Assembly: GCA_043821645.1 (NCBI GenBank)
Contig: JBDRCO010000053.1
Span: 1-64,000 of the forward strand
Source: Pseudomonadota bacterium
GTDB lineage: Bacteria; Myxococcota; JACRCW01; JAFGSX01
DNA length: 64,000 bases
Direction of reading: 5' to 3'
Part shown: positions 16,323 to 32,339 of the stretch, piece by piece
How positions within the stretch are numbered: position 1 is the first letter of the stretch
Layout: each line of letters begins with the position of its first letter
Program-made: the position numbers and the translations under genes
Notes under the pieces: generated by a model
What the model saw: only the letters and a program-made list of their open reading frames with translations
Told to the model about the DNA's origin: nothing
Databases searched by the model: none

Positions 16323-17000
16323 ATGACCGACACCCTGCACTTTGCCCAGCACCGTCTGCAAGAAGGCGCGCTGATCTTCATGGCCCTGGTCTACTGCGCT
16401 CGCCTGTACTGGCTGACCCGCTTCAAGGCGGGCAAGGACAGGCAGCCGCGCACGGGCCGCCACAGCACAGATCCCCGCAAGGGCTGGATGTACTCGATGG
16501 CGATGATCGCCATGCCCTGGGCGATGGAGAGTTCCCGTCGTCACTGGCTCATTTACCTGCAGTTCGTGCTGTTCCACCTGGGCGTGGTGGCGGCCATCGG
16601 TCTCAGCTTCGTGATCCCCTACGGTCCGGGTGTGCTCACGCCTTCGGTGGTGATGGGAGTGCAGGCCCTGACAGGCGCGGCCTTCGTCATCGGTGTGCTG
16701 CGCCTCCTGCGCCGCGTGGGCTCTCCGGTGATGCGCAGGATCAGCTCCCCCGACGACTATTTCTCGCTCAGCCTGCTCACGGTGTGGTTCCTGTTCGCGA
16801 CCCTGGCCGCCCCCAACAATCTGAGCGGTGGTGAGACCACATCGCTCGTCTACTTCGTGCTCACGGCGTTCTTCTTGATCTACGTGCCCTTCAGTAAGAT
16901 CTCGCACTACCTGTACTACCCTTTCACCCGCTTCTACCTGGGGCGCAGTCTCGGCCATCGGGGCGTGTATCCCTTCGAGCGCGGTCGGCAGACCACCTGA
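16323..17000 (+). CDS. NarI/HdrE/HmcE-like membrane b-type cytochrome subunit
   Basis: Several TM helices; LFHLG, RRISSPDDY, VPFSKISHY motifs; adjacent to a CCG enzyme. Confidence 0.75.
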   Translation: MTDTLHFAQHRLQEGALIFMALVYCARLYWLTRFKAGKDRQPRTGRHSTDPRKGWMYSMAMIAMPWAMESSRRHWLIYLQFVLFHLGVVAAIGLSFVIPYGPGVLTPSVVMGVQALTGAAFVIGVLRLLRRVGSPVMRRISSPDDYFSLSLLTVWFLFATLAAPNNLSGGETTSLVYFVLTAFFLIYVPFSKISHYLYYPFTRFYLGRSLGHRGVYPFERGRQTT

Positions 17001-17039: not shown

Positions 17040-18782
17040 ATGCAAAGCACCATCCGATCCCACAAGGCCCAGAAGGTCATCGAGCGCATGGGCCAGAAGC
17101 TCAACCGGCAGATCGTCGGCTCGCTGGTGGCCTGCGTGCACTGCGGCAACTGCACCCAGTCCTGCCACTACGTGCTGGCCAACCCTGACGATCCCAGCTA
17201 CGCACCGGCGGCCAAGGCCGACAAGATCCGCAAGCTGTTCAAGCATCACTACGACTGGACGGGCCGCGTGTTCCCGTGGTGGGTCAAGGGCGGCAGCGTC
17301 TACACCGACGCCGACCTCGAGGAACTCAAGGACACGGTGTTTGGCAAGTGCACCAATTGCCGGCGCTGCTCGCTCAACTGCCCCATGGGTGTGGACTACG
17401 CGACCTTCAATCGCATGGCGCGCGGCTTGCTGGTGTCCGTCGGGGTGATGCCCGAGGGCGTGGCCGTGGTGAGCAAGGACCAGTGGGAACTCGGCAACCA
17501 GATGGGGGTGCTCAAGGAGGACTACCTCGACACCCTGCAGTGGATGAGCGAGGAGCTGGTCGACGAGGTGGGAGACCCTGCCGCAGCGATCCCCATCGAC
17601 AAGAAGGGCGCGGAGATCATGTACACGATCAATCCGCGCGAGGCGAAATACGACCCCCGCTCCATTGCCGACGCGGCCAAGATCTTCTGGGCCGCGGGCG
17701 CCAGCTGGACCATGCCCAGCGAGGGCTGGGACATGACCAACTTCGGTCTGTTCTCGGGTGACGACGAGCTCGGAGGCACCGTCGCGCGGCGCGTGTACGA
17801 GAAGGCCGAGGAGCTGGGCGTCAAGAAGGTGGTGGTCAGCGAGTGCGGCCACGGCTACCGCTCGACCCGTTGCGAGGGCCCCAACTGGGCCGGCTACGAC
17901 ATGACCAGGTTCGAGATGGAGAGCTCGGTCATCACCATGCTGCGCTACATCAAGGACGGCATCATCAAGGTCGACCGCAGCAAGAACACCGAGCGCTACA
18001 CCTTTCACGACTCGTGCAACAACGCCCGCTCCTGCGGCCTGACCGAGGAACCGCGCGAGCTGCTGCGCTTGGTGACGACGGATTTTCAAGAAATGTTCCC
18101 CAACCGTGCCGAGAACTACTGCTGCACGGGCGGCGGCGGCGCCATGTCCATGGGCGAGTACACACCGCGGCGGCTCAAGTCCGGCGAGGTCAAGGCCAAG
18201 CAGCTCAGGGACACGGGGGCCGGATCGGTGGTCACCTCGTGCCATAACTGCGTCGATGGGCTGGGTGATGTGATCAAGCACTACAAGCTGGACATGAAGG
18301 TCACCCAGCTCGTCAACCTGGTGGCCGAGGCTCTGGTGCTCGAGGACAAAATCCAGGCACAGGTGCCGGCTGCCGTCGCAGTCGACAGACCGCTGGCGGG
18401 TCGAACCATCCTGGTCGTCGACGACGAGGCCGACGTGCGCACCTTCCTGCAGGCGGTGTTCGAGGACCACGGAGCCCGCGTCCTGGTGGCTGAGAACGGC
18501 AGTCGTGCCCTGGAGCTCGCGCGGCGGGAGCAGCCCGATCTGGTGACCCTGGACCTGTCGATGCCGGGTCAGGACGGCGGCAAAGTCTACCATGCGCTCA
18601 AGTCCGAGGTCGCCACGCGCGCGCTCAAGGTGTGCATCGTCACCGGCAAGCCCGAGCTGCGCAAGCTCATCTATGATCGCGAGGTGCCACCACCCGAGGG
18701 ATATCTCGACAAGCCGGTGGCCGAGGACACGCTGATCCTCAATGCGCGCAGGATCCTGGAGCTCGCGGACGAAGAGGCCTGA
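17040..18782 (+). CDS. HmcF/HdrD-like Fe-S CCG-domain protein fused to a C-terminal response-regulator receiver domain
   Basis: CVHCGNCTQSC, CTNCRRCSLNCP, ECGHG, HDSCN, YCCTGGGG, SCHNC; then ILVVDDE..PDLVTLDLSMP..LDKP. Confidence 0.88.
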   Translation: MQSTIRSHKAQKVIERMGQKLNRQIVGSLVACVHCGNCTQSCHYVLANPDDPSYAPAAKADKIRKLFKHHYDWTGRVFPWWVKGGSVYTDADLEELKDTVFGKCTNCRRCSLNCPMGVDYATFNRMARGLLVSVGVMPEGVAVVSKDQWELGNQMGVLKEDYLDTLQWMSEELVDEVGDPAAAIPIDKKGAEIMYTINPREAKYDPRSIADAAKIFWAAGASWTMPSEGWDMTNFGLFSGDDELGGTVARRVYEKAEELGVKKVVVSECGHGYRSTRCEGPNWAGYDMTRFEMESSVITMLRYIKDGIIKVDRSKNTERYTFHDSCNNARSCGLTEEPRELLRLVTTDFQEMFPNRAENYCCTGGGGAMSMGEYTPRRLKSGEVKAKQLRDTGAGSVVTSCHNCVDGLGDVIKHYKLDMKVTQLVNLVAEALVLEDKIQAQVPAAVAVDRPLAGRTILVVDDEADVRTFLQAVFEDHGARVLVAENGSRALELARREQPDLVTLDLSMPGQDGGKVYHALKSEVATRALKVCIVTGKPELRKLIYDREVPPPEGYLDKPVAEDTLILNARRILELADEEA

Positions 18783-18856
18783 GCAGCGCCACAGCTCGGC
18801 GAATGTGGGACCGCGCCGGGGGGAGCGCCGCGTGTGAGGAGAACAAGGGGGGGACG

Positions 18857-20281
18857 ATGCCACTCGACTACGCAGCCCTGTTCGAGCAGATGCCCTGTTA
18901 CCTCACTGTTCAGGACAAGTCGCACGCCCTGCTCGCGGCCAACACGCGCTTCGTGCAGGATTTCGGCTCCATCGAGGGACGCACCTGCTACCAGGTGTAC
19001 AAGCAGCGCTCGGAGCCCTGCGAGCAGTGTCCGGTGCAGCGCAGCTTCGACGACGGGCGCCCGCATCGCTCGGAGCAGCAGGTCATCGCCCTCGACGGCC
19101 AGCCCCGGACCATGATCGTGTTCACCCAGCCCATCCGCAACGGCACTCCGGAGGTCGCGCAGGTGCTGGAGCTGAGTGCCGATATCACCGAGATCAAGGC
19201 CCTGGAATTACAGCTGCGCGACAGCAAGCAGCGCCTGCGCGCCCTGTTTGACGAGGTGCCCTGCTACGTGTCGATCCAGGATCCCGAGCTGAACGTGGTC
19301 GAGGCCAACCAGCGCTTCAAGACCGCCTTCGGATCCTGCCTCGGGCTCAAGTGCTTCGAGGTCTACAAACACCGCGACGAGGAATGCATGAGCTGCCCGG
19401 TGCAGCAGACCTTTGTCGACGGCCGGTTGCACCACAGCGAGGAGGTGGTGACCTCGCAGCAGGGCGAGCAGATCCACACCCTGGTCACCACGGCCCCTCT
19501 TCTCGACGAGGCCGGCCACATCGTGCAGGTGATGGAGATGAGTGCCGACATCACGCCCATCCGCCGCCTGCAGTCGCAGCTCGAGTCCATCGGTCTGCTC
19601 ATCAGCAGCATCTCCCACGGCATCAAGGGCTTGCTCACCGGCCTCGACGGCGGCATCTACATGGTCAACAGCGCCCTCAACAACAACAAGCCCGAGCGCA
19701 TGCAGCAGGGCTGGCAGATGGTGCTGCGCAACGTCGACCGTATCCGCAGCATGGTGCTCAACATCCTGTACTACGCTCGGGAACGTGAGCCGCAGTACGA
19801 GGCGGTGGATCTGAAGGGGCTGCTCGACGAGGTGGCCGAGGTCATGCATCCCAAGGCATGCGAGCACAACACAACATTCCAGATCGAGGTGGCGTCGTCG
19901 TCGGGAGCGCTGCTGGCTGACCCGCGCGCGTTGCGGGCGCTGATCGTGAACCTCGCCGAGAACTCCGTGGATGCCTGCCGCGTGGACAGCAAAAAGGACA
20001 GCCACGTGGTGCAAGTACGCGCCCAGGGCACCTCGTCCGAAGTGCAGATCGTCGTCGAAGACAACGGCATAGGTATGGATCGCGAGACGCGCGAGAAGGC
20101 CTTCAGCCTGTTCTTCTCGTCCAAGGGTCACGAGGGTACGGGGCTGGGCCTGTTCATCAGCAACACCATCGCTCGAGCCCACGGAGGCCGCATCGAGGTC
20201 GATTCCGAACCGGAACGTGGCACCTGCTTCCGGGTGCTCCTGCCCCGCGCGCATGCGGCCGTTGCAAAGGGGGGAGCATGA
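18857..20281 (+). CDS. Cytoplasmic sensor histidine kinase with two Cys-containing PAS domains
   Basis: Two PCY..C-x10-C-x2-CP PAS units; H-box SHGIKG; NSVDA, DNGIGM, GTGLGL. Confidence 0.9.
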   Translation: MPLDYAALFEQMPCYLTVQDKSHALLAANTRFVQDFGSIEGRTCYQVYKQRSEPCEQCPVQRSFDDGRPHRSEQQVIALDGQPRTMIVFTQPIRNGTPEVAQVLELSADITEIKALELQLRDSKQRLRALFDEVPCYVSIQDPELNVVEANQRFKTAFGSCLGLKCFEVYKHRDEECMSCPVQQTFVDGRLHHSEEVVTSQQGEQIHTLVTTAPLLDEAGHIVQVMEMSADITPIRRLQSQLESIGLLISSISHGIKGLLTGLDGGIYMVNSALNNNKPERMQQGWQMVLRNVDRIRSMVLNILYYAREREPQYEAVDLKGLLDEVAEVMHPKACEHNTTFQIEVASSSGALLADPRALRALIVNLAENSVDACRVDSKKDSHVVQVRAQGTSSEVQIVVEDNGIGMDRETREKAFSLFFSSKGHEGTGLGLFISNTIARAHGGRIEVDSEPERGTCFRVLLPRAHAAVAKGGA

Positions 20282-20655
20282 GCCTCACCATCCTGGTCGT
20301 TGACGACGAACCCGATATTCGGGCCTTCCTGAGCATGCTGTTCGAGGACCACGGCTACACCGTGCACAGCGTCGAGAATGGCAAGCTGGCGTGGCAGCAC
20401 GTACAGCGGCAGCGACCTGACCTCATCACCCTCGACGTGGCCATGCCCGAGCAGAGCGGCGTGCGCTTCTTCCGGGACATGAAAGAGAGCGAGAGCTTTC
20501 GCGACATCCCCATCATCCTGGTGACGGGTGTCGACGACAAGTTCGAGAGCTTCATCTCCAGCCGGCGCCAGGTTCCTCCTCCCGAGGGCTACCACCGCAA
20601 GCCCATCGTGCGCGAGCACCTGCTCGAACAGGTGCGCCAGCTCCTCGGTGCTTGA
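20278..20655 (+). CDS. Single-domain response regulator
   Basis: ILVVDDE, PDLITLDVAMP, RKP; ATGA overlap with the kinase. Confidence 0.9.
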   Translation: MSLTILVVDDEPDIRAFLSMLFEDHGYTVHSVENGKLAWQHVQRQRPDLITLDVAMPEQSGVRFFRDMKESESFRDIPIILVTGVDDKFESFISSRRQVPPPEGYHRKPIVREHLLEQVRQLLGA

Positions 20656-20777
20656 CCGCGCCACGGCCCTGACCTGCTAGGCGCCTCCCCCGGGCGCATC
20701 CTCCACTTTTCCTCGTGCGCCGACCTTTGCTGCGGCATCCTGCACGCTGGGTGACCATCACGCCGTCGAGGTGAACC

Positions 20778-23540
20778 ATGCCAGAAACCAGCGCGCTGCC
20801 AGACTGGGTGTCCTGGCTCGTCGTGCTTGTGGCCATCGTGCTCGGCCTGTGGCTGCTGCGGCTGGTGCTGGTGTTGCTGAACCTGCTGCGTCACCTGCTG
20901 CAGCGGCCCGCCTACCGGAAGGTCCACGAGGGGAGCTGTCCGCCCTGGGTGCTCGAGGGCCTGCAGCCTGTGATCGCGGAACTGCAGGAGCGGGGCTTCG
21001 AGCTGCAAGGCTGGCTGGGGGTGCGCCGCCTGTTCGCGGTGGCGCGCGACGAGGTGGTGCGGGCGCTGCTGCGCGCCCCCGATGGTGTCACCTGGTGCAC
21101 CGTGGGCTTTGCGGACCTGCCCGACCCCCTGCACCTGTTCCACGTGGTGTTCACCAGCTTTCTCGACGACGGAACGGCCCTGTTCACGGTCAACGGCACG
21201 CGCCACACCGTGGTGGGCGAGATCCCCGACGTGCGGCTCGAGGACCCCATGGCCCTGGATGCCACGGCGCAGTGGCAACATCACGCACGCACCCTGGCTG
21301 CGATGCCGGAGCGTCGGGCACAGCGCGCGGATAGCGTCGACGCTCTGCTGGGGGCCTTGCTGCGCGCCGAGAACCGCTACCTCGACGAGATGCTCAAGCG
21401 GGGCTGGCTGGTGCCCGCAACGCAGCCCGATCGCTTTCGCTTCAGCCTGGTGGCGGCGAGTGCCGGTGCCTGGCGCATCCTGCGCGGGCAGGGTGCGCTG
21501 ACCAAACTGCGGCAGCAGCGGGCCGCGGCGCTGCGCGCGCGCACGCAGGCTCCGCTCCGGGTCCCGGTTGAAGAAGAGGCCGGCGCCTTCGCCGACATCG
21601 AAGTCATCCGGCACACGCCCTCGCCCCGCAGCTTCTGGCTGGCGCTGTTCGGCTCCAGCCTGATCCTGTTCATGCTCGCGGCCACGCGCTGGCTTGATCC
21701 GAACCTGGTGTGGATGGTGGCGGCTGCAGTGCTGCTGCACGAGCTGGGGCACTACTCGGCCATGCGCGCGTTTGACTACAACAACACCGCCATCTTCTTC
21801 GTGCCCTTCTTTGGCGCCGCAACCTCGGGCAGCAAGCGCGACGCTCCTCTGTGGCAGGAGCTGCTGGTGCTGCTGGCGGGGCCGGTGCCGGGCCTGGTCC
21901 TGGCTGCGGCCGTCCTCGGATTGCACAGGCCCGAGGCGGGAAGCAGCCTGCACGAGCTGCTGTCCATTCTCATCGTGCTCAACCTGTTCAACCTGCTCCC
22001 CATCTTCCCCCTCGACGGGGGACGGGTGGTGCACCGCTTGCTGTTTGCCCACAACCGGGTGCTCGACGCCGGGTTCAAGTTGCTGGCCGCGGGGGCTTTT
22101 CTGGGGCTGGGGCTGGCGAGCAACGACGGTCTGATGATCGCGCTGGGCGTGTTCGTGGTGATCGGAATCCCGACCAGCCTGCGCCTGGCGGGTCTGCAGA
22201 GGCGTCTGGGGCGGCGACGCCAGGACGATGGTGAGGCTTCGCTGACGCCACGCCTGGTGTTCGAGGTGATGCAGGAGGCCGGGCAGGGCAGCATGCCCTT
22301 CGCCGTCCGGGTCCAGCAGGCGCGCGCTTTGCTGGAGCAGGGGGGCGGGCGCGAGCGGCCCGGTTGCCTGCCGGCCCTGGGCTGGCTGCTGGTGTACGGG
22401 CTGAGCGTGCTTGGAGCGGGGGCGCTGCTGCTGTGGCTGTTCCTCGGCAGTGGCGCAGGCAGCTCCACGCCGTCGTCGAGCATCCCGGCGCTGGACACAC
22501 CACCCGTCGCCATCGCCTGTCCGGCGGACGCCGAGGTGGCCTGGGGCTTCTGGCGTCACCGCCCCGTCGAGGAGGCCGTCTCCCGGAGCACTGTCCACCT
22601 GTGGATGATCGCAGGCTTCGACAGCGCCGCAGTGGCCGAGGCAGGCGGGCGCGCGATGACCGCGGAAGCCCCCCCGCGAGGTCTGCTGCGTTTCGAGAAC
22701 CTCTTGCTGTGGCAAAGGAACGAGGCCCCCGGCCCCACCGACCTGCCGCTCGGCCTGCTGGAGCCCGGGCTCGAGTCTCTGGGCGCGCGAGTGATGACGC
22801 AGAGCGTCTCCGACGACGAGGGGAGCCTGGTCGAGCTGCGATGCACGCCGCGTTCCGCCGCGCAGCGGGAACAGCTTGTGCGCGAGCTGCAGGATCACTT
22901 CGCGGGCCCCCCGGGCGGCTTCCTGCGCCCGCCCTGGTGGCCCCGCGAGGGCCAGGAGACATTGCCCCGGGCGCAGCAGGATGCGCGTCGCGCCTATCGC
23001 GAGCTGAACGAGGCCACCACCGCGGCCCTGATGGAGTCCACCACAGGCCTCACCTCCTGGCGCGGGACCGTGTCGCTGTGCCTGGCGAGCGACGACGCCG
23101 CGCGCCAGGAACAGATGCTGCAGTGGATGGAGGAGCACAGGCAGCGCAGGCTTCGCGCGGCAGAGCAGTACCTTCAGGCGCACCAGGACGAACCAGGTTT
23201 CGACGCTGGCACCGTGGAAATCTACATGCGCGCGCTGCGCGTCCCGCCGGGTGACGTCGGGGCCCAGCAACAGCTCCAGCGCGAGCTCGCCGAGCGCATG
23301 GGCGCCCTCGCGCTGGTGACCACGGGCGAGGGGCCGCCACAACCCGCGGCCGAAGCCATGGCGCGGTTGATCTGGGCCATGCCCGTCGACACCGAGGGAG
23401 GGACCCTGCGCCTGACGGCGCTGAGCATGGCCAATCCGCAGGCTGCCTTGCCCTCCCTGCTGTCCTACCTGTGCGCCCGTGGTTGCCACGATCTCGAGCT
23501 CCGCCACAGCGGGGACGCGCTGCAGGGGGAGGATCCCTGA
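20778..23540 (+). CDS. Site-2 protease (M50) family protein with N- and C-terminal extensions
   Basis: HELGH zinc motif, LAGP, NLFNLLPIFPLDGG. Confidence 0.8.
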   Translation: MPETSALPDWVSWLVVLVAIVLGLWLLRLVLVLLNLLRHLLQRPAYRKVHEGSCPPWVLEGLQPVIAELQERGFELQGWLGVRRLFAVARDEVVRALLRAPDGVTWCTVGFADLPDPLHLFHVVFTSFLDDGTALFTVNGTRHTVVGEIPDVRLEDPMALDATAQWQHHARTLAAMPERRAQRADSVDALLGALLRAENRYLDEMLKRGWLVPATQPDRFRFSLVAASAGAWRILRGQGALTKLRQQRAAALRARTQAPLRVPVEEEAGAFADIEVIRHTPSPRSFWLALFGSSLILFMLAATRWLDPNLVWMVAAAVLLHELGHYSAMRAFDYNNTAIFFVPFFGAATSGSKRDAPLWQELLVLLAGPVPGLVLAAAVLGLHRPEAGSSLHELLSILIVLNLFNLLPIFPLDGGRVVHRLLFAHNRVLDAGFKLLAAGAFLGLGLASNDGLMIALGVFVVIGIPTSLRLAGLQRRLGRRRQDDGEASLTPRLVFEVMQEAGQGSMPFAVRVQQARALLEQGGGRERPGCLPALGWLLVYGLSVLGAGALLLWLFLGSGAGSSTPSSSIPALDTPPVAIACPADAEVAWGFWRHRPVEEAVSRSTVHLWMIAGFDSAAVAEAGGRAMTAEAPPRGLLRFENLLLWQRNEAPGPTDLPLGLLEPGLESLGARVMTQSVSDDEGSLVELRCTPRSAAQREQLVRELQDHFAGPPGGFLRPPWWPREGQETLPRAQQDARRAYRELNEATTAALMESTTGLTSWRGTVSLCLASDDAARQEQMLQWMEEHRQRRLRAAEQYLQAHQDEPGFDAGTVEIYMRALRVPPGDVGAQQQLQRELAERMGALALVTTGEGPPQPAAEAMARLIWAMPVDTEGGTLRLTALSMANPQAALPSLLSYLCARGCHDLELRHSGDALQGEDP

Positions 23541-23576
23541 ACTGGGCTGGCACTGGACTCTGAACCCCTGTGCGGT

Positions 23577-25640
23577 ATGGATCCCGTCGTGGCACCGCTG
23601 ATTCCTGTTCGCCTTCGCGACAGCCTCTTCGTCGCGGCCAGTGCATTTCTGGCCCTGGTCCTGGCTCTGCGCCTGCACGGCCTCACCACGGCGCTGCCTT
23701 ACTACTTCGCCTACGACATGGACTTCGTGACCTCGCTGGACGCGTTGTTCCTGCACTCGCAGCTGCTGCCCGACCACCTGTGCCACCCTGGCTTCGGCAT
23801 GAATCTCATTCTGTGGCAGGGCACGCGCTGGCTGCACGCGCTCGGCCAGCTCAGCGCCCTGTCCCTCAGCGACGTCGAGCAAAGCCTGAATCCGCTGGCG
23901 CTGATGGCCGAGCACGCCGAGGCGGTGCGGCTGTTCGGGCCGGCAGCGGTGTTTGCGACGGCGGTGTTGCTCAGCCTGGCGCTGTGGCGCCTGCTCGACC
24001 TCGAGCGCTGGTGGGTGCTGGCGATCTTCGTCCTGGTGGGCTGGCAGGCCTCGTCGTCCTTCCACGCAGCCATGCTGCGCACCGAGTGCTTCGCAGTGCT
24101 GTGGTGGAGCGCGGCGCTGTGGGTCGCGGTGGAGGCGGGGCGCGCCCGTCGACGCGGGTGGGCGGTGGGCGGGTTGCTGCTGACGGGGCTGCTGCTCGGG
24201 GTCAGCTTCTTGACCAAGGTGCAGGGCGTGTTCTTTCTGGCCGCGGTGCCTGCCTGGCTGGCCCTGGCCACGCTTCGGCACCAGCGCTGGGATGCGGCCT
24301 GGTTCGAGCTTCTACGTCGTCGCAGCGCGCTCGTGGCGACGGGGGTCACCGCGCTGCTGTCCATCGGCTTCGTGGGTTTGACCCATGCGGCCCAGCGCGC
24401 TGAGGTGCCGAAGGGCATCCTGACCTGGGCCACGAGCTGGGGGCGCACACCGCTGTGGTGGGCGTGCGCCGCTGTGTGTGGTGCGCTGGTGCTCGCCGGG
24501 GCCGTGGCCGCGGTTTGGCCGCGCGCTCGTCGCACGCTGCTGCCTGTGCAGGTGGTCGGCGCCCTGCTGGCGTCGGGCGTGTGCCTGAGCCTGCTGCTGC
24601 ACCTGGTGATCTACGACGAGCTGGCCCTGGGCTGGCGCTACCTGCTGCTCGACTTCAAGTTTGCACTGCTGCGCCACAGCGATCTGGTGCGGGTTCCGAC
24701 GTGGACCGGGGCCTGGGCCACCCTGTCCTCGGTGGTGAAGGCCAGTCCTGGCCCCTTCGTGCTGCATGCCGTCGCCCTGCTGGTGCTGATCGCAACGCGC
24801 TGGCGGCGCTGGTCCACGACAGCCTGGGCGGCGCTGGGGATCGTGATCGCACTGATCGCACTGGCCCTGCTGCAGATCGCCATCGCCACCAGGGTGTCGA
24901 GCAAGGACCTGGTGTGGCAAGAGACACTGCTCAACCTGGGCACGCTGCTCGCGCTGGGAATGCTGTGGAGCGATCTCGTGGTTGCGTCCCGACGACCGCG
25001 GCTGGTCGTGGCCTGCACCCTGGGTCTGCTGGTGCTCCTCAACGTCCGCGCCGGGCAGGCGAGTGCCGCCAGCGTGCAGCGAGCCGGGCCCTACTACTGG
25101 CAGGAGTGGGTGTGGCTCCGCGGGATAGGAAAGTACGAGGGCAATCAGCGCAGGTACAAGAAGCTGATGGGTCGTCGCTACCCCGATGCTGCGGACCGCG
25201 TGCTTAAGGATACGGCTCGCGAGCACGCCTTTCGCTTGCAGCTGGCGCGCGCCACACTGCCAGACCTGGCGCTGGACCAGCGCTCGCTCGGCGTCCTGGC
25301 CACCTCGCAGCCAGCCCTGCGCAGCGATCTGGCGCTGCAGCAGATCGAGGGCCCGCGTGGCTGGCGTGGCAGCGTGCTCATCGACGTGTCGGACCTGCTG
25401 GACACCCGCGGCGCACGACGGCTGCGCGTGACGGCGCGGGCGGACGCTGACGTGATGCTGCTCGTCGACGACACAGCCTGGTCTGCCGCGACTTCGCGGG
25501 ACGTGGAGCCCAGCCCGGAGCGGCTCGTCCTCGGGGACGGGCCCCGAGGTCACGAGCTGAAGGGACTGTGGGTCACAAAATCCTGCACGGTCCAGCTGGC
25601 AGGCAGTGGACCCGTGCTGGTCGCGGTGCGGAGACGCTGA
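23577..25640 (+). CDS. Polytopic membrane protein (possibly GT-C glycosyltransferase-like)
   Basis: Many TM helices; YDMD..HPG loop, LRTE and LTK motifs typical of GT-C folds. Confidence 0.55.
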   Translation: MDPVVAPLIPVRLRDSLFVAASAFLALVLALRLHGLTTALPYYFAYDMDFVTSLDALFLHSQLLPDHLCHPGFGMNLILWQGTRWLHALGQLSALSLSDVEQSLNPLALMAEHAEAVRLFGPAAVFATAVLLSLALWRLLDLERWWVLAIFVLVGWQASSSFHAAMLRTECFAVLWWSAALWVAVEAGRARRRGWAVGGLLLTGLLLGVSFLTKVQGVFFLAAVPAWLALATLRHQRWDAAWFELLRRRSALVATGVTALLSIGFVGLTHAAQRAEVPKGILTWATSWGRTPLWWACAAVCGALVLAGAVAAVWPRARRTLLPVQVVGALLASGVCLSLLLHLVIYDELALGWRYLLLDFKFALLRHSDLVRVPTWTGAWATLSSVVKASPGPFVLHAVALLVLIATRWRRWSTTAWAALGIVIALIALALLQIAIATRVSSKDLVWQETLLNLGTLLALGMLWSDLVVASRRPRLVVACTLGLLVLLNVRAGQASAASVQRAGPYYWQEWVWLRGIGKYEGNQRRYKKLMGRRYPDAADRVLKDTAREHAFRLQLARATLPDLALDQRSLGVLATSQPALRSDLALQQIEGPRGWRGSVLIDVSDLLDTRGARRLRVTARADADVMLLVDDTAWSAATSRDVEPSPERLVLGDGPRGHELKGLWVTKSCTVQLAGSGPVLVAVRRR

Positions 25641-25655
25641 GCCGGGCGCGCAGCC

Positions 25656-26033
25656 TCAGTCCTTGAGCAGCGCCTCGAGCTTCTTGAGGAGCTCGTTCTT
25701 GTCGACGGGCTTGGAGAAATAAGCATCGGGAGGCGGCACCTGGCGGCGGCTGGAGATGAACTGCTGGAACTCCTCCATCACGCCGGTGACCATGACCACG
25801 GGGATGTCCTTGGTCTGGGCGTTCTCGCGCACGTCGCGGTAGAAGCGCACGCCGGACTTCTCGGGCATGGTGATGTCCAGCATGATGAGGTCAGGCTTCT
25901 CGCTGAGGACCTTGTGCAGACCCTCGACGCCATCATGGGCTGACGCGGTGGAGTAGCCATTGTCCTCGAGCAGGGACACGAAGTAGGTCACCAGGTCCTT
26001 GTCGTCGTCAATGACGAGAATCTTCTTTGCCAT
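25656..26033 (-). CDS. Single-domain response regulator
   Basis: AGGAG RBS; KKILVIDDD, PDLIMLDITMP, FSKP. Confidence 0.9.
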   Translation of the reverse strand: MAKKILVIDDDKDLVTYFVSLLEDNGYSTASAHDGVEGLHKVLSEKPDLIMLDITMPEKSGVRFYRDVRENAQTKDIPVVMVTGVMEEFQQFISSRRQVPPPDAYFSKPVDKNELLKKLEALLKD

Positions 26034-26069
26034 GGCCGCTCTCCTTTCAGGGGGCGTTGGGGGCCCCGC

Positions 26070-26153
26070 GTCGCCGGGAGTGCATCCCGTCGACATCACC
26101 CCGCCAGCACCTGTCGCCGGGAGTGCATCCTTTCGAGGTCACCCCGCCAACAC
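26070..26153. repeat. Intergenic tandem duplication (2 x ~41 bp, period 43)
   Basis: gtcgccgggagtgcatcc-N-tcaccccgcca(g/a)cac at 26070-26110 and 26113-26153. Confidence 0.85.
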
Positions 26154-26170
26154 AGGTTCGAAAACCGAAC

Positions 26171-27772
26171 TCAGTGCCACTCCCAGTCGACGTAGTTCGG
26201 CTTGGCGTCGACCATGGCGTTGACCATGAGCTCGACCAGGCCGCCGTACAGGATGCCCGCGGTCTCCCAGGCGTTGTAGTAGGACAGGATGTCGCGGATC
26301 TGGCCCTTGCAGTTGGAGCAGGGTGCACACACGTACTTCGGATGCTCCTTGTCCATGGGCTCGTTGCCGAAGGCGTCGAGGATCTGGCGGAACTTGCGGC
26401 GCCCGGTCAGGTGGTGGCGCCAGTCCTTGAAGTTGTGGCCGCTCATGATGGCAAAGCCCGAGCCGCCGCCGCAGCAGTAGTTGTGCACGCCGTGGGGCGT
26501 CATCTCGCGGAAGCGATGCTCGGGTACAATGGCGCGCAGGATCTCGCGCTGCGGCTCAACGATGCCCATGAGCCGCACCATGTTGCAGGGATCGTGCAGG
26601 GTCACCGGGAAGTCGTTGCGGCTCTTGTCGAACTTGATCTTGCCCGAGCGCACGATCTCGAGCAGCACGGTCAGGGCGCTCTCGCGGGGGATGTTGAGGT
26701 CGCCGGTGATCACCTTGTCGGCGATGACCGTGAGCGCCTTGTGGGCATGGCCGCATTCGCCGATGACCACGCGCTTGACGCCCAGCTTCTTGGCCGCCTG
26801 CATGTGCTTGAGCGCCACGCGCGCGAACTGCACGTCGTCGTACCACACGCCGTAGTTGATGCCGTCGTAGGCCGCGAGCTCGCTCGACAGGGTCCACGAC
26901 AGGCCGGCCTTCTCGAACAGCAGCGCGAAGGCGCCGGGGTTCTCGGGCCAGGCCATGATCTCGCCGGCGTTGTGGATGAGCAGGATGTCCGCGCCCTCGA
27001 CGTCCCAGGGGGTATGGATCTCGATGCCGGTCTTGTCTGTGGTGTCCTCGTCGATGAAGTCCATGTTGTCCTTGACGACGAGGGAATTCATACCGGTCGA
27101 GGACCCGACCTTGATCTGCAGCACCGAGCCGTTGTCGTGGCACTCGCGCGACGAGATGCCCAGGTTCATGCTGGCGATCTTGCGGATCTCCCGCGCCAGC
27201 AGCGCGTTGTCGACGCCGATGGGGCAGGTCTGGGCGCAGCGCCGGCACACGTTGCAGCGGTACGCCAGCTCGATGAGCCGGGCCACGGTCTTCCAGTTGA
27301 GGTCGATGTCGCCGTGCACCCAGGTCGAGGCACCCTTGACGTACTTCCAGTAGATGCGGCGAAAGATCTCGGAGCGGAAGGACGGCCGGTACAGCTCGTT
27401 GTGACCGCTCTCCTCGAAGATGGGGCAGGCCTCGGAGCAGGTCTGGCAGTGGGCGCAGTGCTCGGTGGACATCACCAGGGGCTGCAAGAAGGCCCAGTTG
27501 TCGTTCTCGGTGAAGCACTTGCGCATGCCATCGAGGAAGCCGTTGACCAGCCGCTCCTCGTCTTCTTTGGTCGCGGGCTTGGGCAGATTGAGCGCGATGG
27601 TGTCGTCGAGCACCACGTACTTGCTGGTGGCGGCCTCGCTCAGGGGCGGGACGGCCGGCTCCTCGTCGAGCTTGTCAAAGGGCGGTGGCAGCGGGATCTG
27701 GTCGCGGATCTCGACATGGGTCAGGGGGCCATCCTTGGCCGAGAAGTCCTTGAAGCTGACCTGCTTGCTCAT
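26171..27772 (-). CDS. dsrK: DsrK-like catalytic subunit (Firmicutes-type DsrK2); alternative start 27811
   Basis: CAHCQTCSEACP, ELAYRCNVCRRCAQTCP, HNAGE..WPENP, ECGHAHK, HDPCN, NYCCGGGSG, CAPCSNCKG; AGGAGA RBS. Confidence 0.85.
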   Translation of the reverse strand: MSKQVSFKDFSAKDGPLTHVEIRDQIPLPPPFDKLDEEPAVPPLSEAATSKYVVLDDTIALNLPKPATKEDEERLVNGFLDGMRKCFTENDNWAFLQPLVMSTEHCAHCQTCSEACPIFEESGHNELYRPSFRSEIFRRIYWKYVKGASTWVHGDIDLNWKTVARLIELAYRCNVCRRCAQTCPIGVDNALLAREIRKIASMNLGISSRECHDNGSVLQIKVGSSTGMNSLVVKDNMDFIDEDTTDKTGIEIHTPWDVEGADILLIHNAGEIMAWPENPGAFALLFEKAGLSWTLSSELAAYDGINYGVWYDDVQFARVALKHMQAAKKLGVKRVVIGECGHAHKALTVIADKVITGDLNIPRESALTVLLEIVRSGKIKFDKSRNDFPVTLHDPCNMVRLMGIVEPQREILRAIVPEHRFREMTPHGVHNYCCGGGSGFAIMSGHNFKDWRHHLTGRRKFRQILDAFGNEPMDKEHPKYVCAPCSNCKGQIRDILSYYNAWETAGILYGGLVELMVNAMVDAKPNYVDWEWH

Positions 27773-27807
27773 GGGCGTCTTCTCCTGCGGGTGTAGCGTC
27801 GACGTGC

Positions 27808-28767
27808 TCATGGGGTGACCACCTTGGCGGTGTCCTCGGTGGCGGCCTCGGCCCAGGTCTTTTTGCCGTCGCCACCGATGTGGGCGGCGGCCCAGGACAG
27901 GGGCCTGTTGAGCGCTGCGCCGATGATGGCTTCCTCGGGGCCGCCCTGCAGGTTGGGCGTGTCGTTCCAGCGGATCGCGTGGTAGGCGAAGTACTTGCCC
28001 ACGAAGTGCGACATGTGTGTCAGCGGGATGTAAGCCAGCATCGCGGCCCACAGCATCATCGTCGCCGCAGGCAGCACAGCCTGGGTGGTGGCAAGGGGCA
28101 GGTCGACCAGATGGAAGGTCACCAGCGACCCCACCAGCGTCGACACCAGCGCAAAATCACGGTCCACCGCCACGAAGGTGACGAGGGACAGCCCAAAGGC
28201 CGCGATGAACAGGATCAGGTTCATGAAGTCGGCTGGCGTCGAGAAGTTGCGCAGCGCCGGCGTGTTCAGGCGGCGGCTCAGCAAACCGATGGAGCCCAGC
28301 AAGCCGAGCACGATGCCGCTCGCGCCCGAGGCCAGCACCAGGTAGTGCAGCAGCGTGCCCAGGCCGCCCGCGGCGAGCCCCGGCGCGATGGCGCCCAGCA
28401 CGCCGCCCAGCATCATCAGCGCGGTGCAGCCCGCCACCAGGTACAGGCCAAAGTGGAAGGGGAACGAGCGCAGCCACAGCTTGGGGTGGTGCTCTCTGAG
28501 GGCGTCCAGGAACAGCATCTCGGGCACCATCACGCTGAGCTCGCCGGCCAGCGAGGTCTCGCGCTTCTGCGTCCACCACTTCGGCATCTCGTAGTAGGAG
28601 CCGCCGTACTTGGCGCGCGAGGGCGCCTCATGGGCCACCGGGTACAGCTCCCAGCGCAGGTGCATGGGCATGCGCTGCCACATCAGAAAGCGAGCAACCA
28701 CGGCGATGACGAACACCGCGATGGCCACGTAGCTCAGGACCAGGGCGAGCAAGGGCAAGCTCATCAT
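27808..28767 (-). CDS. dsrM: DsrM-like membrane cytochrome b (NarI family, DsrM2)
   Basis: MPMHLRWELYPVAHE, SFPFHFGLY, YIPLTHMSHF..YHAIRW; directly upstream of dsrK. Confidence 0.85.
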   Translation of the reverse strand: MMSLPLLALVLSYVAIAVFVIAVVARFLMWQRMPMHLRWELYPVAHEAPSRAKYGGSYYEMPKWWTQKRETSLAGELSVMVPEMLFLDALREHHPKLWLRSFPFHFGLYLVAGCTALMMLGGVLGAIAPGLAAGGLGTLLHYLVLASGASGIVLGLLGSIGLLSRRLNTPALRNFSTPADFMNLILFIAAFGLSLVTFVAVDRDFALVSTLVGSLVTFHLVDLPLATTQAVLPAATMMLWAAMLAYIPLTHMSHFVGKYFAYHAIRWNDTPNLQGGPEEAIIGAALNRPLSWAAAHIGGDGKKTWAEAATEDTAKVVTP

Positions 28768-28869
28768 CTGCCTCCAGGGGGCGGGGTATGCGGGGGCGAA
28801 CCGCAGCTGAGCCCCGATTAGTCTGCTAGCCTACTGCTCGGGCCTGCGCAAGGGTGGCACCTGAGATGG

Positions 28870-29090
28870 CAAGTTGAGGCAAAACATCACCTGTTCGGTA
28901 GTCAATAGGATGAATAATTGTTGAGTGAAAAGATAAAATATAAAAAAGCCAATGCTGCACAAACACTCACCCGTACCCAGCTTGCCAGTATCTGCAGATC
29001 TTACTAGACAGCAATAGTGCTATATAACTTGAAGAGCAGTGATATTTTATTTTTTTAGCGTCTCTAATCAAATCTCTTTATAGCCATGGT
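28870..29090. promoter_or_regulatory. AT-rich divergent promoter region; IscR/Rrf2-like site at 29001-29025
   Basis: AT island between divergent dsrM2 and kinase; TTACTAGACAGCAATAGTGCTATAT resembles the IscR type-1 consensus. Confidence 0.5.
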
Positions 29091-29229
29091 TTCTTCTTCT
29101 GGGGGGGGGCATGACCCACTTTCGGTGCGGCAAACCTGTCCTATCGAGGCGCGGCGGCGCCGTCCGCACCCTGCTGGCTGGTCAGCGCCGGCCACGCGGG
29201 GCATGCTAGAAATGGGGAACGGGGACGTG

Positions 29230-30846
29230 ATGGCCAAAGAAGGGTGGGGGGGGATGCGCGCGCTGCGCGAGTTGCAGATCCTGGGCGTCGCAGGTGCTGG
29301 CCTGCTGGTGGCCGCGCTGTGGGCCGCGCCGTCGCTGTTGCTGGTGGTGGCGCTGGCCTTTGTCGGTGTTCTCGTCGTGGTGGGGCTGCGCCTGCAGCGC
29401 CAGCTGAGCACGGACGAGCGCTGGCGCGACGTCATGCCCGGCTATCTGTCGATTCAAGATCGCGACCTGCGCATCCTCGAGACCAACACCTCGTTTCGAC
29501 GCGACCTGGGCGAGGACTCGGTGGGCCGGCACTGCCACGACGTGTACAAGAAGGCCAGCCACCCCTGCCCCCACTGTCCGGTGCTCAAGACCTTCGAGGA
29601 CGGCAAGGTGCACGTCAGCGAGGAGTGCATCACCCTGCGCGACGGCAGCCAGGCTCAGGTGGTGGTCACCTCCGCGCCGCTGCGCGACAGCCGCGGCAGG
29701 GTGGCGGCGGTGATGGAGATGTCGACCAACATCACCGAGGCGATCGCCCTGCGCGGCGAGCTCGACCGCACCCGCGAGGACTACCGACAGCTGTTCGACA
29801 TCGTGCCCTGCTACATCTCCATCCAGGACCGCGACTACCGGGTGGTGCAGTCCAACGCCCTGTTCAAGCAGGACTTCGGCGACGCCTCCGGCGAGCAGTG
29901 CTACCGCGTCTACAAGGGTCGCGACTCCATCTGTCCTGGCTGTCCGGTGGAGCAGACCTTTGCCGACGGCGAGGTGCACTCGAGCGAGGAGAAGGTACGC
30001 ACCCGCGACGGCCGCGAAGCCGCCATGATCGTGTACTCGATGCCGGTGCTCGACGCGCGCGGCGAGGTGGCGCAGGTGATGGAGGTGTCCACCAACATCA
30101 CCCGGGTCAAGCAACTGCAGCGGCAGCTGGCCATGGTGGGGCTGGCGGTGAGTGGCATGGCCCACCGCATCAAGAACGTGATGACGGGCCTCGAGGGCGG
30201 CATCTTCGTCGTCAACAGCGGCTTCGAGCTGGGCGAGCAGGACACGGTGACCGAGGGCTGGCAGATGGTGCAGCGCAACGCCGGCAAGATCGCCCAGATC
30301 GCCCGCGACCTGCTGTTCTGCTCCAAGGAGCGGCAGCCCGAGCTGCGTCCGGGGGTGGTGCCGGCGGCCATCGCGCGCGAGGTTCACGAGCTGTACCGCG
30401 CGCGCATCGAGCAGGAGGGCATGACCTTCGTGCTCGAGCTCAGTGACGAGGAACGCAGCGGGACCTTTGACACCGAGGCCCTGCATACGCTGATGAACAA
30501 CCTGGTGGCCAACGCCCTGGACGCCTGTCGCTTTGACCCGCGCCACGACGAGAAGCAGATGCGCATCGTGCTCGCCTGCCGCTGGCCAGACGAGCACTCG
30601 CTGGAGATCGAGGTGGCCGACTCGGGCATGGGCCTGGCGCCCGAGGACAGGGATCGCATGTTCGAAAGCTTCTTCTCGACCAAGGGCAGCGAGGGCACGG
30701 GGCTGGGCCTGTTCGTGGTGCAGAAGGTGGTGCAGGAGCACGGGGGCGAGATCCGCTTCGCGTCGACGCCGGGCGAGGGTACCACCTTCACCGCGGTGCT
30801 GCCGGCCGAGGGTGCGCCCACGGCGCAGGACCGTTTGGCGAATTGA
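29230..30846 (+). CDS. Membrane-anchored sensor histidine kinase with two Cys-PAS domains (start uncertain; alternative 29254)
   Basis: N-terminal hydrophobic helices; CHDVYK..CPHCP and CYRVYK..CPGCP; AHRIKN H-box; NALDA, DSGMG, GTGLGL. Confidence 0.88.
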   Translation: MAKEGWGGMRALRELQILGVAGAGLLVAALWAAPSLLLVVALAFVGVLVVVGLRLQRQLSTDERWRDVMPGYLSIQDRDLRILETNTSFRRDLGEDSVGRHCHDVYKKASHPCPHCPVLKTFEDGKVHVSEECITLRDGSQAQVVVTSAPLRDSRGRVAAVMEMSTNITEAIALRGELDRTREDYRQLFDIVPCYISIQDRDYRVVQSNALFKQDFGDASGEQCYRVYKGRDSICPGCPVEQTFADGEVHSSEEKVRTRDGREAAMIVYSMPVLDARGEVAQVMEVSTNITRVKQLQRQLAMVGLAVSGMAHRIKNVMTGLEGGIFVVNSGFELGEQDTVTEGWQMVQRNAGKIAQIARDLLFCSKERQPELRPGVVPAAIAREVHELYRARIEQEGMTFVLELSDEERSGTFDTEALHTLMNNLVANALDACRFDPRHDEKQMRIVLACRWPDEHSLEIEVADSGMGLAPEDRDRMFESFFSTKGSEGTGLGLFVVQKVVQEHGGEIRFASTPGEGTTFTAVLPAEGAPTAQDRLAN

Positions 30847-30849
30847 GGC

Positions 30850-31218
30850 TCAGTCCGCGTCGGCCTCGCCGATGGCGCGCTCGACGGTGTCGATGAACTC
30901 TTTGGGGTCGATGGGCTTGTCGAACACCGCGAAGGGCTCGGGTACGGCCAGGTGGCGACCCGAAAGACCGCTGATCACGATCACCGGGATCTTCTTCAGC
31001 GCCGCGTCTTTTTGCAGGTGGCGGTAGAAGTCGGTGCCCGACTGCTTGGGCATCATCAAGTCCAGGGTGATGAGGTCGGGCTTCTCGGCCTGGGCGATGC
31101 CGAGCGCCTCGGCGCCGTTCTCGGCCAGCACCACCTGGTAGCCGGCCTTGCGCAGCGCGGTCTTGAGAAAGGTGCGAATGTCGGCCTCGTCGTCGACCAC
31201 CAGGATCTTCTTGCTCAT
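30850..31218 (-). CDS. Single-domain response regulator (Rrf1-like position)
   Basis: MSKKILVVDDE, PDLITLDLMMP, FDKP; GGAGA RBS. Confidence 0.9.
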   Translation of the reverse strand: MSKKILVVDDEADIRTFLKTALRKAGYQVVLAENGAEALGIAQAEKPDLITLDLMMPKQSGTDFYRHLQKDAALKKIPVIVISGLSGRHLAVPEPFAVFDKPIDPKEFIDTVERAIGEADAD

Positions 31219-32339
31219 GTTGTCTCCCCTATCTTGGCGCCCCTGCCCTCGCGCCATGCTAGCTCGTTTTCGGGGGGCAGCTCGATGCGAAAGACCGTGC
31301 CCCGGCCCTGGGTCGAGGTGAAGGAAATGCGCCCGCCGTGTTCCTCGACGGTCTTCTTGGTCAGCAGCAGGCCCAGGCCCGTGCCGCGCAGACCCTTGCT
31401 GGTGTGGTAGGTGCGCAGGATGCGCGGCTGGTCCTCGGCGGCGATGCCCATGCCGCTGTCCTCGACCTCGATGGCCAGCCCGCCGTCGTCCAGCGGGTGG
31501 GCGCGCACGGCGATGCGCTGGGCTTTGTCGGTGTCGGGATCCCAGGTGCAGGCGTCCACGGCATTGGCCACCAGGTTGCTCAGAGCCGCGTGCATGGCCT
31601 CGCGGTCCAGCACCCGCGCTGCCACGCCGTCGGCGATCTCGGCCACCAGGGCAATGCCGGCCTGGCTGGCCTTGGGCGTGAACAGGCTCACCACGTCGCG
31701 CAGCAGCGCGGCCACGTCGACGCGGTCGCGCACGTGGGGGCGGGCCCGGGCGAAGCTGAGCAGGTTGCGGGTCAAAGTGTTGAGCTGGTCGAGGTAACCC
31801 TTGACCATCTCCCAGCCACTGCGCAGGCGCCCGCTGTCGTCCTTTTGCAGGCCGGTGTCGACGAGGTAGCTGCCACCCTCGAGGCCGGCCAGGATGTTCT
31901 TGATGGTGTGGGCCAGGCCCGCGGCGGTGAGGCCCACGGTGGCCAGGCGCTCGGCCTGCTGCAACCCCTTCTCCAGCTCGACCAGCCGCGTGTCGTCGTG
32001 GGAGATCAGCATGACGCGAGAGATCTGTGCCCCGCGACCGGGCACCGGGATGGCCTGCACGGCGTAGCTCAGGTACTGGTCGCCGGCAGAGCGTCCCTCC
32101 TCGCGCCCGCCGTGTGTGGCACCGTCGGCGAAGCAGGCTGCGGCCGGGCAGCTCTCGCAGGGGGCATCGCGCCCCTTGTAAACGCGAAAGCAAGGCTCGC
32201 CCGCGCGGGCACCGAAGGCGCGCTCGAAACTGGGGTTATGAATCAGGATGTGAAACTGGCGATCGATGACCGCGACGTGGCAGGGCACGTGCTGCAGCGC
32301 GAGCAGGCCCAGGGGGCCGGTGGCCCTGCCGTCACTCAT
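31215..32339 (-). CDS. Sensor histidine kinase with one Cys-PAS domain
   Basis: VPCH..CFRVYKGRDAPCESCP; AHTIKN; NAVDA, DSGMG, GTGLGL. Confidence 0.88.
   Translation of the reverse strand: MSDGRATGPLGLLALQHVPCHVAVIDRQFHILIHNPSFERAFGARAGEPCFRVYKGRDAPCESCPAAACFADGATHGGREEGRSAGDQYLSYAVQAIPVPGRGAQISRVMLISHDDTRLVELEKGLQQAERLATVGLTAAGLAHTIKNILAGLEGGSYLVDTGLQKDDSGRLRSGWEMVKGYLDQLNTLTRNLLSFARARPHVRDRVDVAALLRDVVSLFTPKASQAGIALVAEIADGVAARVLDREAMHAALSNLVANAVDACTWDPDTDKAQRIAVRAHPLDDGGLAIEVEDSGMGIAAEDQPRILRTYHTSKGLRGTGLGLLLTKKTVEEHGGRISFTSTQGRGTVFRIELPPENELAWREGRGAKIGETT

Follow-up and report, generated by a model that had tools for sequence, protein, structure and literature searches.

Cysteine-rich PAS kinases and receivers without DNA-binding domains accompany HdrD-like redox modules and may act on enzymes rather than genes

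We analyzed a 64,000-nucleotide stretch of DNA (here, the window: positions 1 to 64,000 of contig JBDRCO010000053.1, assembly GCA_043821645.1, a Pseudomonadota bacterium placed by GTDB in the Myxococcota) in which three histidine kinases with cysteine-rich PAS domains (HK1 to HK3) and four receivers (REC1 to REC4) stand beside membrane redox modules containing HdrD-like iron-sulfur (Fe-S) proteins with a CCG domain. We propose, at a probability of roughly 45%, that these kinases are Fe-S redox sensors that gate the HdrD-like reductases post-translationally, as three paralogous pairs whose targets are enzymes and not genes. HK1 would work with REC2 and the fused receiver REC1, HK2 with REC3, and HK3 with REC4. 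Each kinase would sense the cytoplasmic redox state, or sulfur or oxygen species, through an Fe-S cluster in its PAS domain, the likely ligands being three invariant cysteines (C-x10-C-x2-C) and a usual fourth just ahead of strand A-beta, and would phosphorylate the receiver that adjoins it. To judge from one protein fusion and one complex model, the receivers may then target the CCG subunit of a membrane redox module, an HdrD/DsrK-like protein on the cytoplasmic side: one such subunit is covalently joined to REC1, and REC3 is predicted to dock on another, DsrK2. Electron flow would thereby be gated between the quinone/cytochrome side and a cytoplasmic disulfide or trisulfide acceptor, while the same genes would be transcribed under the control of other Fe-S sensors encoded nearby, Rrf2 proteins and OrpR-like sigma-54 activators. 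The first-pass annotation of this DNA had proposed one circuit selecting among the HdrD-like enzymes; we found no evidence for such a selection, and the layout looks like three adjacent pairs, each with its own CCG module.

Genes were chosen by third-position G+C bias (window G+C 61-74%) and named by Pfam and NCBIfam. The + strand carries, in order, two Rrf2 genes and the genes for the Macro protein, a cytochrome b, CCG-REC1, HK1 and REC2. The - strand carries DsrM2 (DsrM-like), DsrK2 (DsrK-like) and REC3, with HK2 (+) divergent from dsrM2K2, as well as a long operon of TmcD, TmcC, TmcB, HmcA, HmcB, HmcC, HK3 and REC4, which two sigma-54 activators precede. The genes at the center of the proposal are as follows.

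15752..16282 (+): Macro-domain protein, the cassette's first conserved gene (PF01661, 83.6 bits)
16230..17000 (+): TmcC/HmcE-like membrane cytochrome b (NCBIfam HmcE 48 bits and TmcC 46 bits, far below cut-off)
17040..18782 (+): CCG-REC1, HdrD/TmcB/HmcF-like Fe-S protein with C-terminal receiver (Pfam Fer4_8, CCG, Response_reg)
18803..20281 (+): HK1, soluble histidine kinase with two four-cysteine PAS domains (gene-caller start 18857, 474 aa)
20278..20655 (+): REC2, stand-alone VPPP-type receiver (PF00072, 78.4 bits)
25656..26033 (-): REC3, stand-alone VPPP-type receiver downstream of DsrK2 (PF00072)
26171..27811 (-): DsrK2, DsrK-like CCG Fe-S protein with GECGH and CCGGGSG (NCBIfam DsrK 322 bits, cut-off 400)
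27808..28767 (-): DsrM2, NarI/DsrM-like membrane cytochrome b (Nitrate_red_gam 29 bits; DsrM 35.5 bits, cut-off 300)
29086..30846 (+): HK2, histidine kinase with N-terminal hydrophobic hairpin and two Cys-PAS domains (alternative start 29230)
30850..31218 (-): REC4, stand-alone receiver nearest the DVU0259 family (NF045717, 135.6 bits, cut-off 160)
31215..32339 (-): HK3, soluble histidine kinase with one four-cysteine PAS domain (Pfam)

One indication that the receivers may act on enzymes comes from the CCG proteins themselves. CCG-REC1 has two ferredoxin-type clusters, a SECGH motif and one CCG motif, and carries REC1 at residues 455-566. Among the CCG proteins of the window, the CCG domain (PF02754) scores 38.0 and 35.2 bits against a cut-off of 20.6. 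For CCG-REC1, the NCBIfam models TmcB (NF045724), HmcF (NF045711) and DsrK (NF045796) give 321, 319 and 253 bits, all below their respective cut-offs of 735, 750 and 400 bits. In our alignment, SECGH or GECGH together with CC(T/G/A)GGG is present in all CCG paralogues; the CCG motif and the (G/T)ECGH cysteine are defined, and their role described, in PMC10861901.

A second indication is a predicted complex of DsrK2, which has 20 orthologues at 53-77% identity, with REC3. This one pair was modelled, using our own alignments of 21 DsrK2 and 21 REC3 orthologues. The interaction prediction score from aligned errors (ipSAE) was 0.81, 0.81 and 0.79, compared with 0.00 for the best of three controls, with 57-59 contacts, a partner predicted local distance difference test score (pLDDT) of 91-92 and at least 98% of contacts common to the runs. 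The ipSAE mark is reached by 116 of 157 solved complexes and by 2 of 215 mismatched pairs, a calibration that is only rough with own alignments. On REC3 the predicted interface (residues 54-63, 66, 84-92 and 95-98) comprises the loop right after the phospho-Asp (54-63) and, together spanning 84-98, the beta4-alpha4 loop, helix alpha-4 and SRRQ; on DsrK2 it comprises residues 235-259 and 283-289, between the ferredoxin and CCG domains, and includes the invariant residues V235, T239, G240, D248, F252, G283 and P289. The receiver face involved is the part that moves on phosphorylation and, because docking uses the loop after the phospho-Asp and helix alpha-4, phosphorylation would be expected to alter the contact. 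We know of no solved complex of this kind that the predictor could have memorised. The model thus lends support to the earlier suggestion that a free receiver docks on DsrK2.

Consistent with their description as output-less in the first-pass annotation, all four proteins are PF00072 receivers (64-78 bits), and a Pfam scan found no further domain in any of them beyond the fused CCG protein, and none that binds DNA. D10, D53, T83 and K108 are invariant in the 21 REC3 orthologues, and by eye the same active-site residues are seen in REC1, REC2 and REC4. The DVU0259 family (NF045717) is the best NCBIfam match of all four, each below its cut-off of 160 (REC1 69.2, REC2 97.0, REC3 110.8 and REC4 135.6 bits). 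Three share the loop (RRQ/DRE)VPPP(E/D)(G/A)Y noted at first reading, which is DREVPPPEGY in REC1, RRQVPPPEGY in REC2 and RRQVPPPDAY in REC3, the exception being REC4 with AVPEPFAVF. The expression VPPP[ED][GA][YF] has three matches among the 46,740 six-frame open reading frames (ORFs) of the 7.07-Mb host genome, all in the window. We nevertheless rejected VPPP, with its PPP tripeptide, as the family-defining feature: fused receivers of other genomes mostly read V-x-x-P-E-G-Y, the constant part of their alpha4-beta5 loop being P(E/D)GY..KP, with the full PPP in 18 of 68, and VPPP(E/D)G(Y/F) is found in 42 of 67 free receivers. A maximum-likelihood tree of 59 receivers, whose bootstrap had not fully settled, groups the fused ones together and places the free ones in one clade (93/97), split into a REC4 type (98/87), shared with receivers from genome G005, and a VPPP type (92/91) that includes REC2 and REC3. 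Because the tree unites them, leaving four unrelated receivers from the same loci outside the fused/free family, we regard the receivers as one paralogous family. The kinases are likewise each other's closest relatives, HK2 and HK3 being 40% and 35% identical to HK1.

We also asked how widely this arrangement is conserved. Full-length orthologues of HK1 (56-59% identity) occur in only 3 of 41 related genomes and are absent from the nearest kin; the three genomes belong to other families of the window's phylum, and their neighborhoods repeat its layout in three blocks: Rrf2, Macro, cytochrome b, CCG-REC, HK1 and REC; DsrM2, DsrK2, REC, HK2 and REC; and a sigma-54 activator followed by TmcD, TmcC, TmcB, HmcA, HmcB and HmcC. 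A scan of one genome per species returned 539 relatives of the HK1 double PAS region. Locus counts refer to the best 80, for which a closer four-sequence alignment was the query and which cover HK1-type kinases only. These loci are in metagenome-assembled genomes of Myxococcota, Planctomycetota, Acidobacteriota, Gemmatimonadota, Zixibacteria, Fibrobacterota, Ignavibacteria, Calditrichota, Thermodesulfobacteriota, Poribacteria and others. The core of Macro, cytochrome b, CCG-receiver, kinase and receiver is nearly unchanged in 80/80 of them, across more than ten phyla. A CCG-REC gene lies directly upstream of HK1 in 77/80 loci (65/67 where the flank is long enough) and a receiver directly downstream in 67/80 (64/74 where the flank is long enough). 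In most loci Macro and cytochrome b precede CCG-REC, the head gene being Rrf2 or a sigma-54 activator; the cytochrome b orthologues score 240-330 bits with phmmer, and about 22 of the 80 loci include DsrM2K2 in the flank that was fetched. For the first of the respiratory operons named in the first-pass annotation, a self-contained, widely conserved cassette is a better description than an hmc operon with added regulators. We found no account of this cassette in the searched literature, subscription journals being outside its reach.

The HK2 and HK3 types were surveyed in 301 genomes of the window's phylum. The Cys-PAS domain was found in 17 of these, several having three kinases like the window, and a CCG gene is present in 11 of 13 stretches around HK2/HK3-type kinases (stretches of at least 5 kb were counted, leaving out the weak matches L115 and L116 and one 2-kb contig). 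Typical orders are CCG, TmcC-like, HmcB, HmcC, kinase, receiver, receiver, or DsrM2, DsrK2, receiver, kinase, receiver. A lack of enrichment beside CCG genes in other genomes would, by the first-pass annotation, have spoken against its reading; instead, these kinases and receivers proved strongly enriched there. In most genomes one kinase is flanked by a fused receiver on one side and, on the other, by a free receiver that adjoins DsrM2K2. Probably, therefore, a kinase shared by two CCG modules is ancestral, and this genome split that unit into the HK1 and HK2 pairs and added a third pair on a Tmc/Hmc hybrid operon.

The Macro-domain protein (ADP-ribose binding or hydrolase type) is the constant first member of the cassette across phyla; in NCBIfam it comes closest to O-acetyl-ADP-ribose deacetylase, at 106 bits against a cut-off of 200. 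The cytochrome b ORF overlaps the Macro gene, and its true start is uncertain.

The distribution and docking data bear on the possibility that the receivers have no effect on the enzymes and are instead phosphate sinks, or connectors to a DNA-binding or cyclic di-GMP partner, in which case the linkage would reflect co-expression only, as is usual for two-component systems. Regulators do often adjoin their targets, and DVU0259, the best match of all four proteins, is a named single-domain receiver family. We nonetheless consider this explanation unlikely, because more than ten phyla retain the covalent receiver-CCG fusion, the REC3-DsrK2 interface, predicted with confidence, has the phosphorylation site at its center, and separate transcription factors (Rrf2 or OrpR-like) are already present in the cassette.

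Turning to the kinases, Pfam identified PAS_4 and HATPase_c domains in all three (PF02518: HK1 85.8, HK2 88.7 and HK3 83.5 bits) and reported HisKA for none of them. Residues 266-485 of HK1, H-box included, align to the dimerization/phosphotransfer and catalytic domains (DHp and CA) of HK853 (4jas; E 1e-19). The H-box histidine is present in all three kinases, and the H-boxes (HK1 SHGIKGLLTGLDGG, HK2 AHRIKNVMTGLEGG and HK3 AHTIKNILAGLEGG) all fit the pattern H.IK...GL.GG, as first noted. Both PAS domains of HK1 read PCY..C-x10-C-x2-CP; the first PAS domain of HK2 reads PGY..C-x10-C-x2-CP, lacking the upstream cysteine, and the second PCY..C-x10-C-x2-CP; the single PAS domain of HK3 reads PCH..C-x10-C-x2-CP. 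The triad reported at first reading is thus found in 5/5 domains and the upstream PC[YH] in 4/5. HK1 is soluble and has no input domain other than its PAS domains. Source-database names for its relatives are all generic, for example 'PAS domain-containing sensor histidine kinase' (656 matches).

The Cys-PAS domain is confined to the window within its own genome and is strictly conserved beyond it. The expression C.{10}C..CP has 71 matches in the 46,740 ORFs, of which by eye only five are in a PAS context, all of them in the window, and a profile built from 16 Cys-PAS domains has exactly five matches in the genome, again all in the window; this clustering is therefore not due to chance. In those 16 domains, from four genomes, C43, C54 and C57 are invariant and the upstream C13 is present in 12, whereas the proline after C-x2-C is present in only 10 and so is not conserved elsewhere. 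Among the 80 HK1 orthologues, for which the search pattern had fixed only K48 and C54 of the second domain (PAS-b), all four cysteines (C13, C43, C54 and C57) are present in 80/80 PAS-b domains; in PAS-a the triad is present in 80/80 and C13 in 74/80. Altogether 154 of 160 domains keep the fourth cysteine, and the three of the core are invariant. With a profile of 140 domains, 576 representatives were retrieved at E<=1e-30 among 1.84 billion clusters (50% identity); of the best 150, 140 contain the triad, in some proteins as many as five times.

In an AlphaFold2 model of the domain (pLDDT 94.5), C13 lies just ahead of A-beta, a short helix starts at C43, and the loop ahead of F-alpha, on the cofactor side of PAS domains, contains C54 and C57. 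Foldseek returned the cofactor-binding PAS domains of NifL, DosP and LOV as the nearest folds, that is, generic cofactor PAS domains and no Fe-S PAS domain. By sequence, no solved chain in the PDB matches the HK1 PAS region, and the HK3 PAS domain retrieved nothing but itself in a word-based search. When the kinase Cys-PAS profile was compared with OrpR-like PAS domains by hhalign (probability 97.9%), the first cysteine aligned and the other two fell in the same loop with different spacing. The invariance of the cysteines and the likeness of their positions to the OrpR and NreB sites make an Fe-S cluster in the kinase PAS domain plausible, as the first-pass annotation had suggested; NreB, which it had named as an example, was rejected as the closest model, since its motif runs in reversed order (C-x2-C-x11-C versus C-x10-C-x2-C). 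Taking together cysteine invariance, the cofactor-side position, the OrpR and NreB precedents and the hhalign link with its different spacing, we infer that the kinase Cys-PAS may represent a third type of Fe-S PAS domain.

The same domain leaves room for signaling in the reverse direction, in which the cytochrome b/CCG module would be the sensor, reading the quinol/quinone ratio and reducing or oxidizing the CxxC pair of the kinase Cys-PAS as a thiol switch, with the fused receiver serving as membrane anchor or feedback. HK1 is a soluble protein with no other input, it almost never occurs without the CCG-REC protein encoded directly upstream, and its PAS domain contains a CxxC pair; moreover, CCG proteins of this kind have cysteine disulfides or trisulfides as substrates (PMC10861901) and retain the catalytic GECGH cysteine. 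Yet four invariant cysteines in a cofactor pocket, with the OrpR and NreB precedents, suit a metal cluster better than a surface dithiol, a receiver fused to a CCG protein is normally the receiving end of phosphotransfer, and the REC3-DsrK2 model requires no kinase, so we hold this alternative to be quite improbable. Much to be doubted, too, is a structural zinc or other cofactor at the cysteine site of a PAS domain that senses a non-redox signal such as a metabolite, with the output unchanged: sets of three or four cysteines that include a CxxC pair also commonly bind zinc, and the nearest solved folds bind FAD, haem or FMN and not Fe-S, but both experimentally studied PAS domains with a cysteine triad in that loop hold Fe-S clusters (PMC8359166 and PMC13478379), and the setting is saturated with Fe-S redox sensors (two Rrf2 and three OrpR-like activators).

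The third kinase-receiver pair of the proposed gating system, HK3 and REC4, ends the Tmc/Hmc operon. The remaining genes of this operon and the transcriptional regulators near the three modules are as follows.

14191..14721 (+): Rrf2-family regulator, first (PF02082 111.9 bits; TIGR00738 113.9 bits)
15175..15639 (+): Rrf2-family regulator, second (PF02082 96 bits; TIGR00738 99.2 bits)
32484-33653 (-): HmcC (NCBIfam 528 bits, below the cut-off of 550)
33650-34786 (-): HmcB (NCBIfam 386 bits, below the cut-off of 420)
34699 to about 36430 (-): HmcA-like 16-haem cytochrome (NCBIfam HmcA 421 bits, above the cut-off of 400)
36495-37810 (-): TmcB, frameshifted (NCBIfam, scored as N-terminal fragment only)
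37838-38482 (-): TmcC (NCBIfam 247 bits, above the cut-off of 240)
38498-39787 (-): TmcD (NCBIfam 492 bits, above the cut-off of 440)
39990..42915 (-): two sigma-54 activators whose PAS domains have the OrpR motif C-x8-C-x3-C (Pfam and sequence)

The order TmcD-TmcC-TmcB-HmcA-HmcB-HmcC constitutes a conserved Tmc/Hmc hybrid (30850-39787; also at loci L015, L098, L106 and L110), which differs from what we take to be the Desulfovibrio orders, tmcABCD and hmcABCDEF. The Tmc gene order recurs in genomes G005, G051, G086 and G110, and in G110, as in the window, the hybrid is followed by a Cys-PAS kinase and a receiver. Three sigma-54 activators have the OrpR motif (39990-41315, 41383-42915 and 48372-49883, all on the - strand), so that the window holds eight Cys-triad PAS domains, five in kinases and three in these activators. 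An orthologue of one activator (s54b) lies directly upstream of tmcD in G005, G051 and G110, and C-x8-C-x3-C is present in 13/13 activators that adjoin the cassette or the Tmc operon in other genomes. The sigma-54 promoter TGGCAC-N5-TTGC with one mismatch has 7 matches against 6.9 expected, none of them upstream of tmcD, Macro or dsrM2; as the matches equal the expected number and are missing from the key genes, they give no support for sigma-54 control.

Several observations weigh against post-translational gating by Fe-S kinases. The pairing of each kinase with its receiver is read from adjacency. The docking controls were unrelated proteins and not other receivers, for the single pair modelled, and the DsrK2 docking segment has counterparts in CCG-REC1, TmcB and the true DsrK, so it is no special add-on, being present in all CCG paralogues. 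The kinase PAS motif matches neither the OrpR nor the NreB spacing; the fourth cysteine is absent from one of the five window domains and from four of the 16 in the four-genome set, and long multi-PAS relatives lack C13. Two of the 13 HK2/HK3-type stretches (L108 and L111) have no CCG gene nearby. Finally, TmcB is interrupted in this assembly by a one-base frameshift near 37527-37531, with an N-terminal 127-aa ORF and a C-terminal 353 aa in another frame; it could be a pseudogene or an assembly error, its orthologues being intact in G005, G051, G086 and G110.

Elsewhere, the host genome has a bona fide dsrA (562 bits) and a separate true DsrK on contig C81, indicating that DsrK2 is an extra copy. 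Three of the nine CCG genes in the whole genome are within the window. Between REC2 and REC3 (20778-25640, +) are two large genes, for proteins of 920 aa (partial peptidase M50) and 687 aa (no family match), which look like an insertion because DsrM2K2 directly follows the cassette in other genomes. A 1011-aa protein at 9345-12380 (-) has a C-terminal pretoxin HINT domain, a polymorphic-toxin architecture. Further redox and sulfur genes at 173-2222 (+), 5897-9328 (+) and 47537-48331 (-) encode an Fe-S/NrfD pair, a pyridine nucleotide-disulfide oxidoreductase, a sirohaem-synthase-like methylase and a TauE/SafE sulfite exporter. An orp-like gene set at 43831-46008 (-) and 50074-50819 (+) adjoins the third OrpR-like activator and encodes an MrpORP-like P-loop ATPase (372 bits, cut-off 450), a CGGC-domain protein, two Nitro_FeMo-Co (orange-protein-like) proteins and a DUF134 protein.

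More broadly, we tentatively suggest, as a possibility short of probable, that the cassette, along with its paralogues linked to DsrM2K2 and Tmc/Hmc, governs respiratory electron flow post-translationally: an Fe-S PAS kinase would read the redox or sulfide state and, through phospho-receivers that are part of the HdrD-like disulfide/trisulfide reductases or dock on them, turn these enzymes on or off within seconds. To our knowledge, two-component control is known for genes, motors, proteases and nucleotide cyclases and not for respiratory iron-sulfur enzymes. If correct, this would be the first two-component system with an iron-sulfur oxidoreductase as its output, spread over more than ten mostly uncultured phyla, and anaerobes could re-route electrons among quinone-linked modules far faster than by transcription. 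The poorly understood Tmc, Hmc and DsrMK-like paralogues would gain a regulatory handle and a route to their substrates, and the Cys-PAS would add a third, very widespread Fe-S PAS sensor type (576 clusters). Both the cysteine triad and the DsrK2-REC3 interface offer well-defined sites for mutagenesis.

Among known sensors, the kinase PAS domain can be compared with those of OrpR and NreB. In the sigma-54 activator OrpR of D. vulgaris Hildenborough, a PAS domain holds a redox-sensitive [4Fe-4S] cluster with three fully conserved cysteines, C52, C61 and C65, spaced C-x8-C-x3-C (PMC8359166). The kinase Cys-PAS domains are similarly cytoplasmic and have three conserved cysteines in the loop/helix region ahead of F-alpha. 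Unlike in OrpR, their motif, known from sequence alone, is C-x10-C-x2-C, mostly with a fourth cysteine ahead of A-beta, and they are coupled to a histidine kinase instead of an AAA+ activator. NreB (Staphylococcus, Bacillus licheniformis) is, like HK1 to HK3, a histidine kinase, with an N-terminal PAS domain and cysteine-held Fe-S; the B. licheniformis protein, a sulfide sensor, binds its [2Fe-2S] cluster through C63, C66 and C78 and a labile sulfur ligand (PMC13478379). Its three cysteines and open fourth position resemble the three-cysteine variants described here, whereas its motif is in the opposite order and its partner, NreC, is DNA-binding.

Like DsrMK, TmcBC and HmcEF of Desulfovibrio (PMC10861901), the redox modules of the window join a cytochrome b in the membrane to an HdrD-like partner in the cytoplasm, which bears a single CCG motif, the (G/T/S)ECGH cysteine and two ferredoxin-type clusters. 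They differ in that all three scored window paralogues fall below the NCBIfam cut-offs for DsrK, TmcB and HmcF (TmcB as N-terminal fragment), one includes a receiver, and a Cys-PAS kinase accompanies each of them. The stand-alone receivers are like the DVU0259 family, the best model for all four at scores below 160. We take DVU0258-0260 to lie beside tmcABCD in D. vulgaris, and rrf1/rrf2 presumably lie downstream of its hmc operon. Single-domain receivers that act by protein binding include CheY (on FliM), DivK and CpdR, and CheB and PleD are receiver-enzyme fusions. We found no description in the searched literature of a receiver acting on an iron-sulfur oxidoreductase. As with CheY, DivK, CpdR, CheB and PleD, output here would be by protein contact or a fused enzyme, independent of DNA binding; unlike in those cases, the predicted target is an iron-sulfur oxidoreductase of a membrane electron-transfer module.

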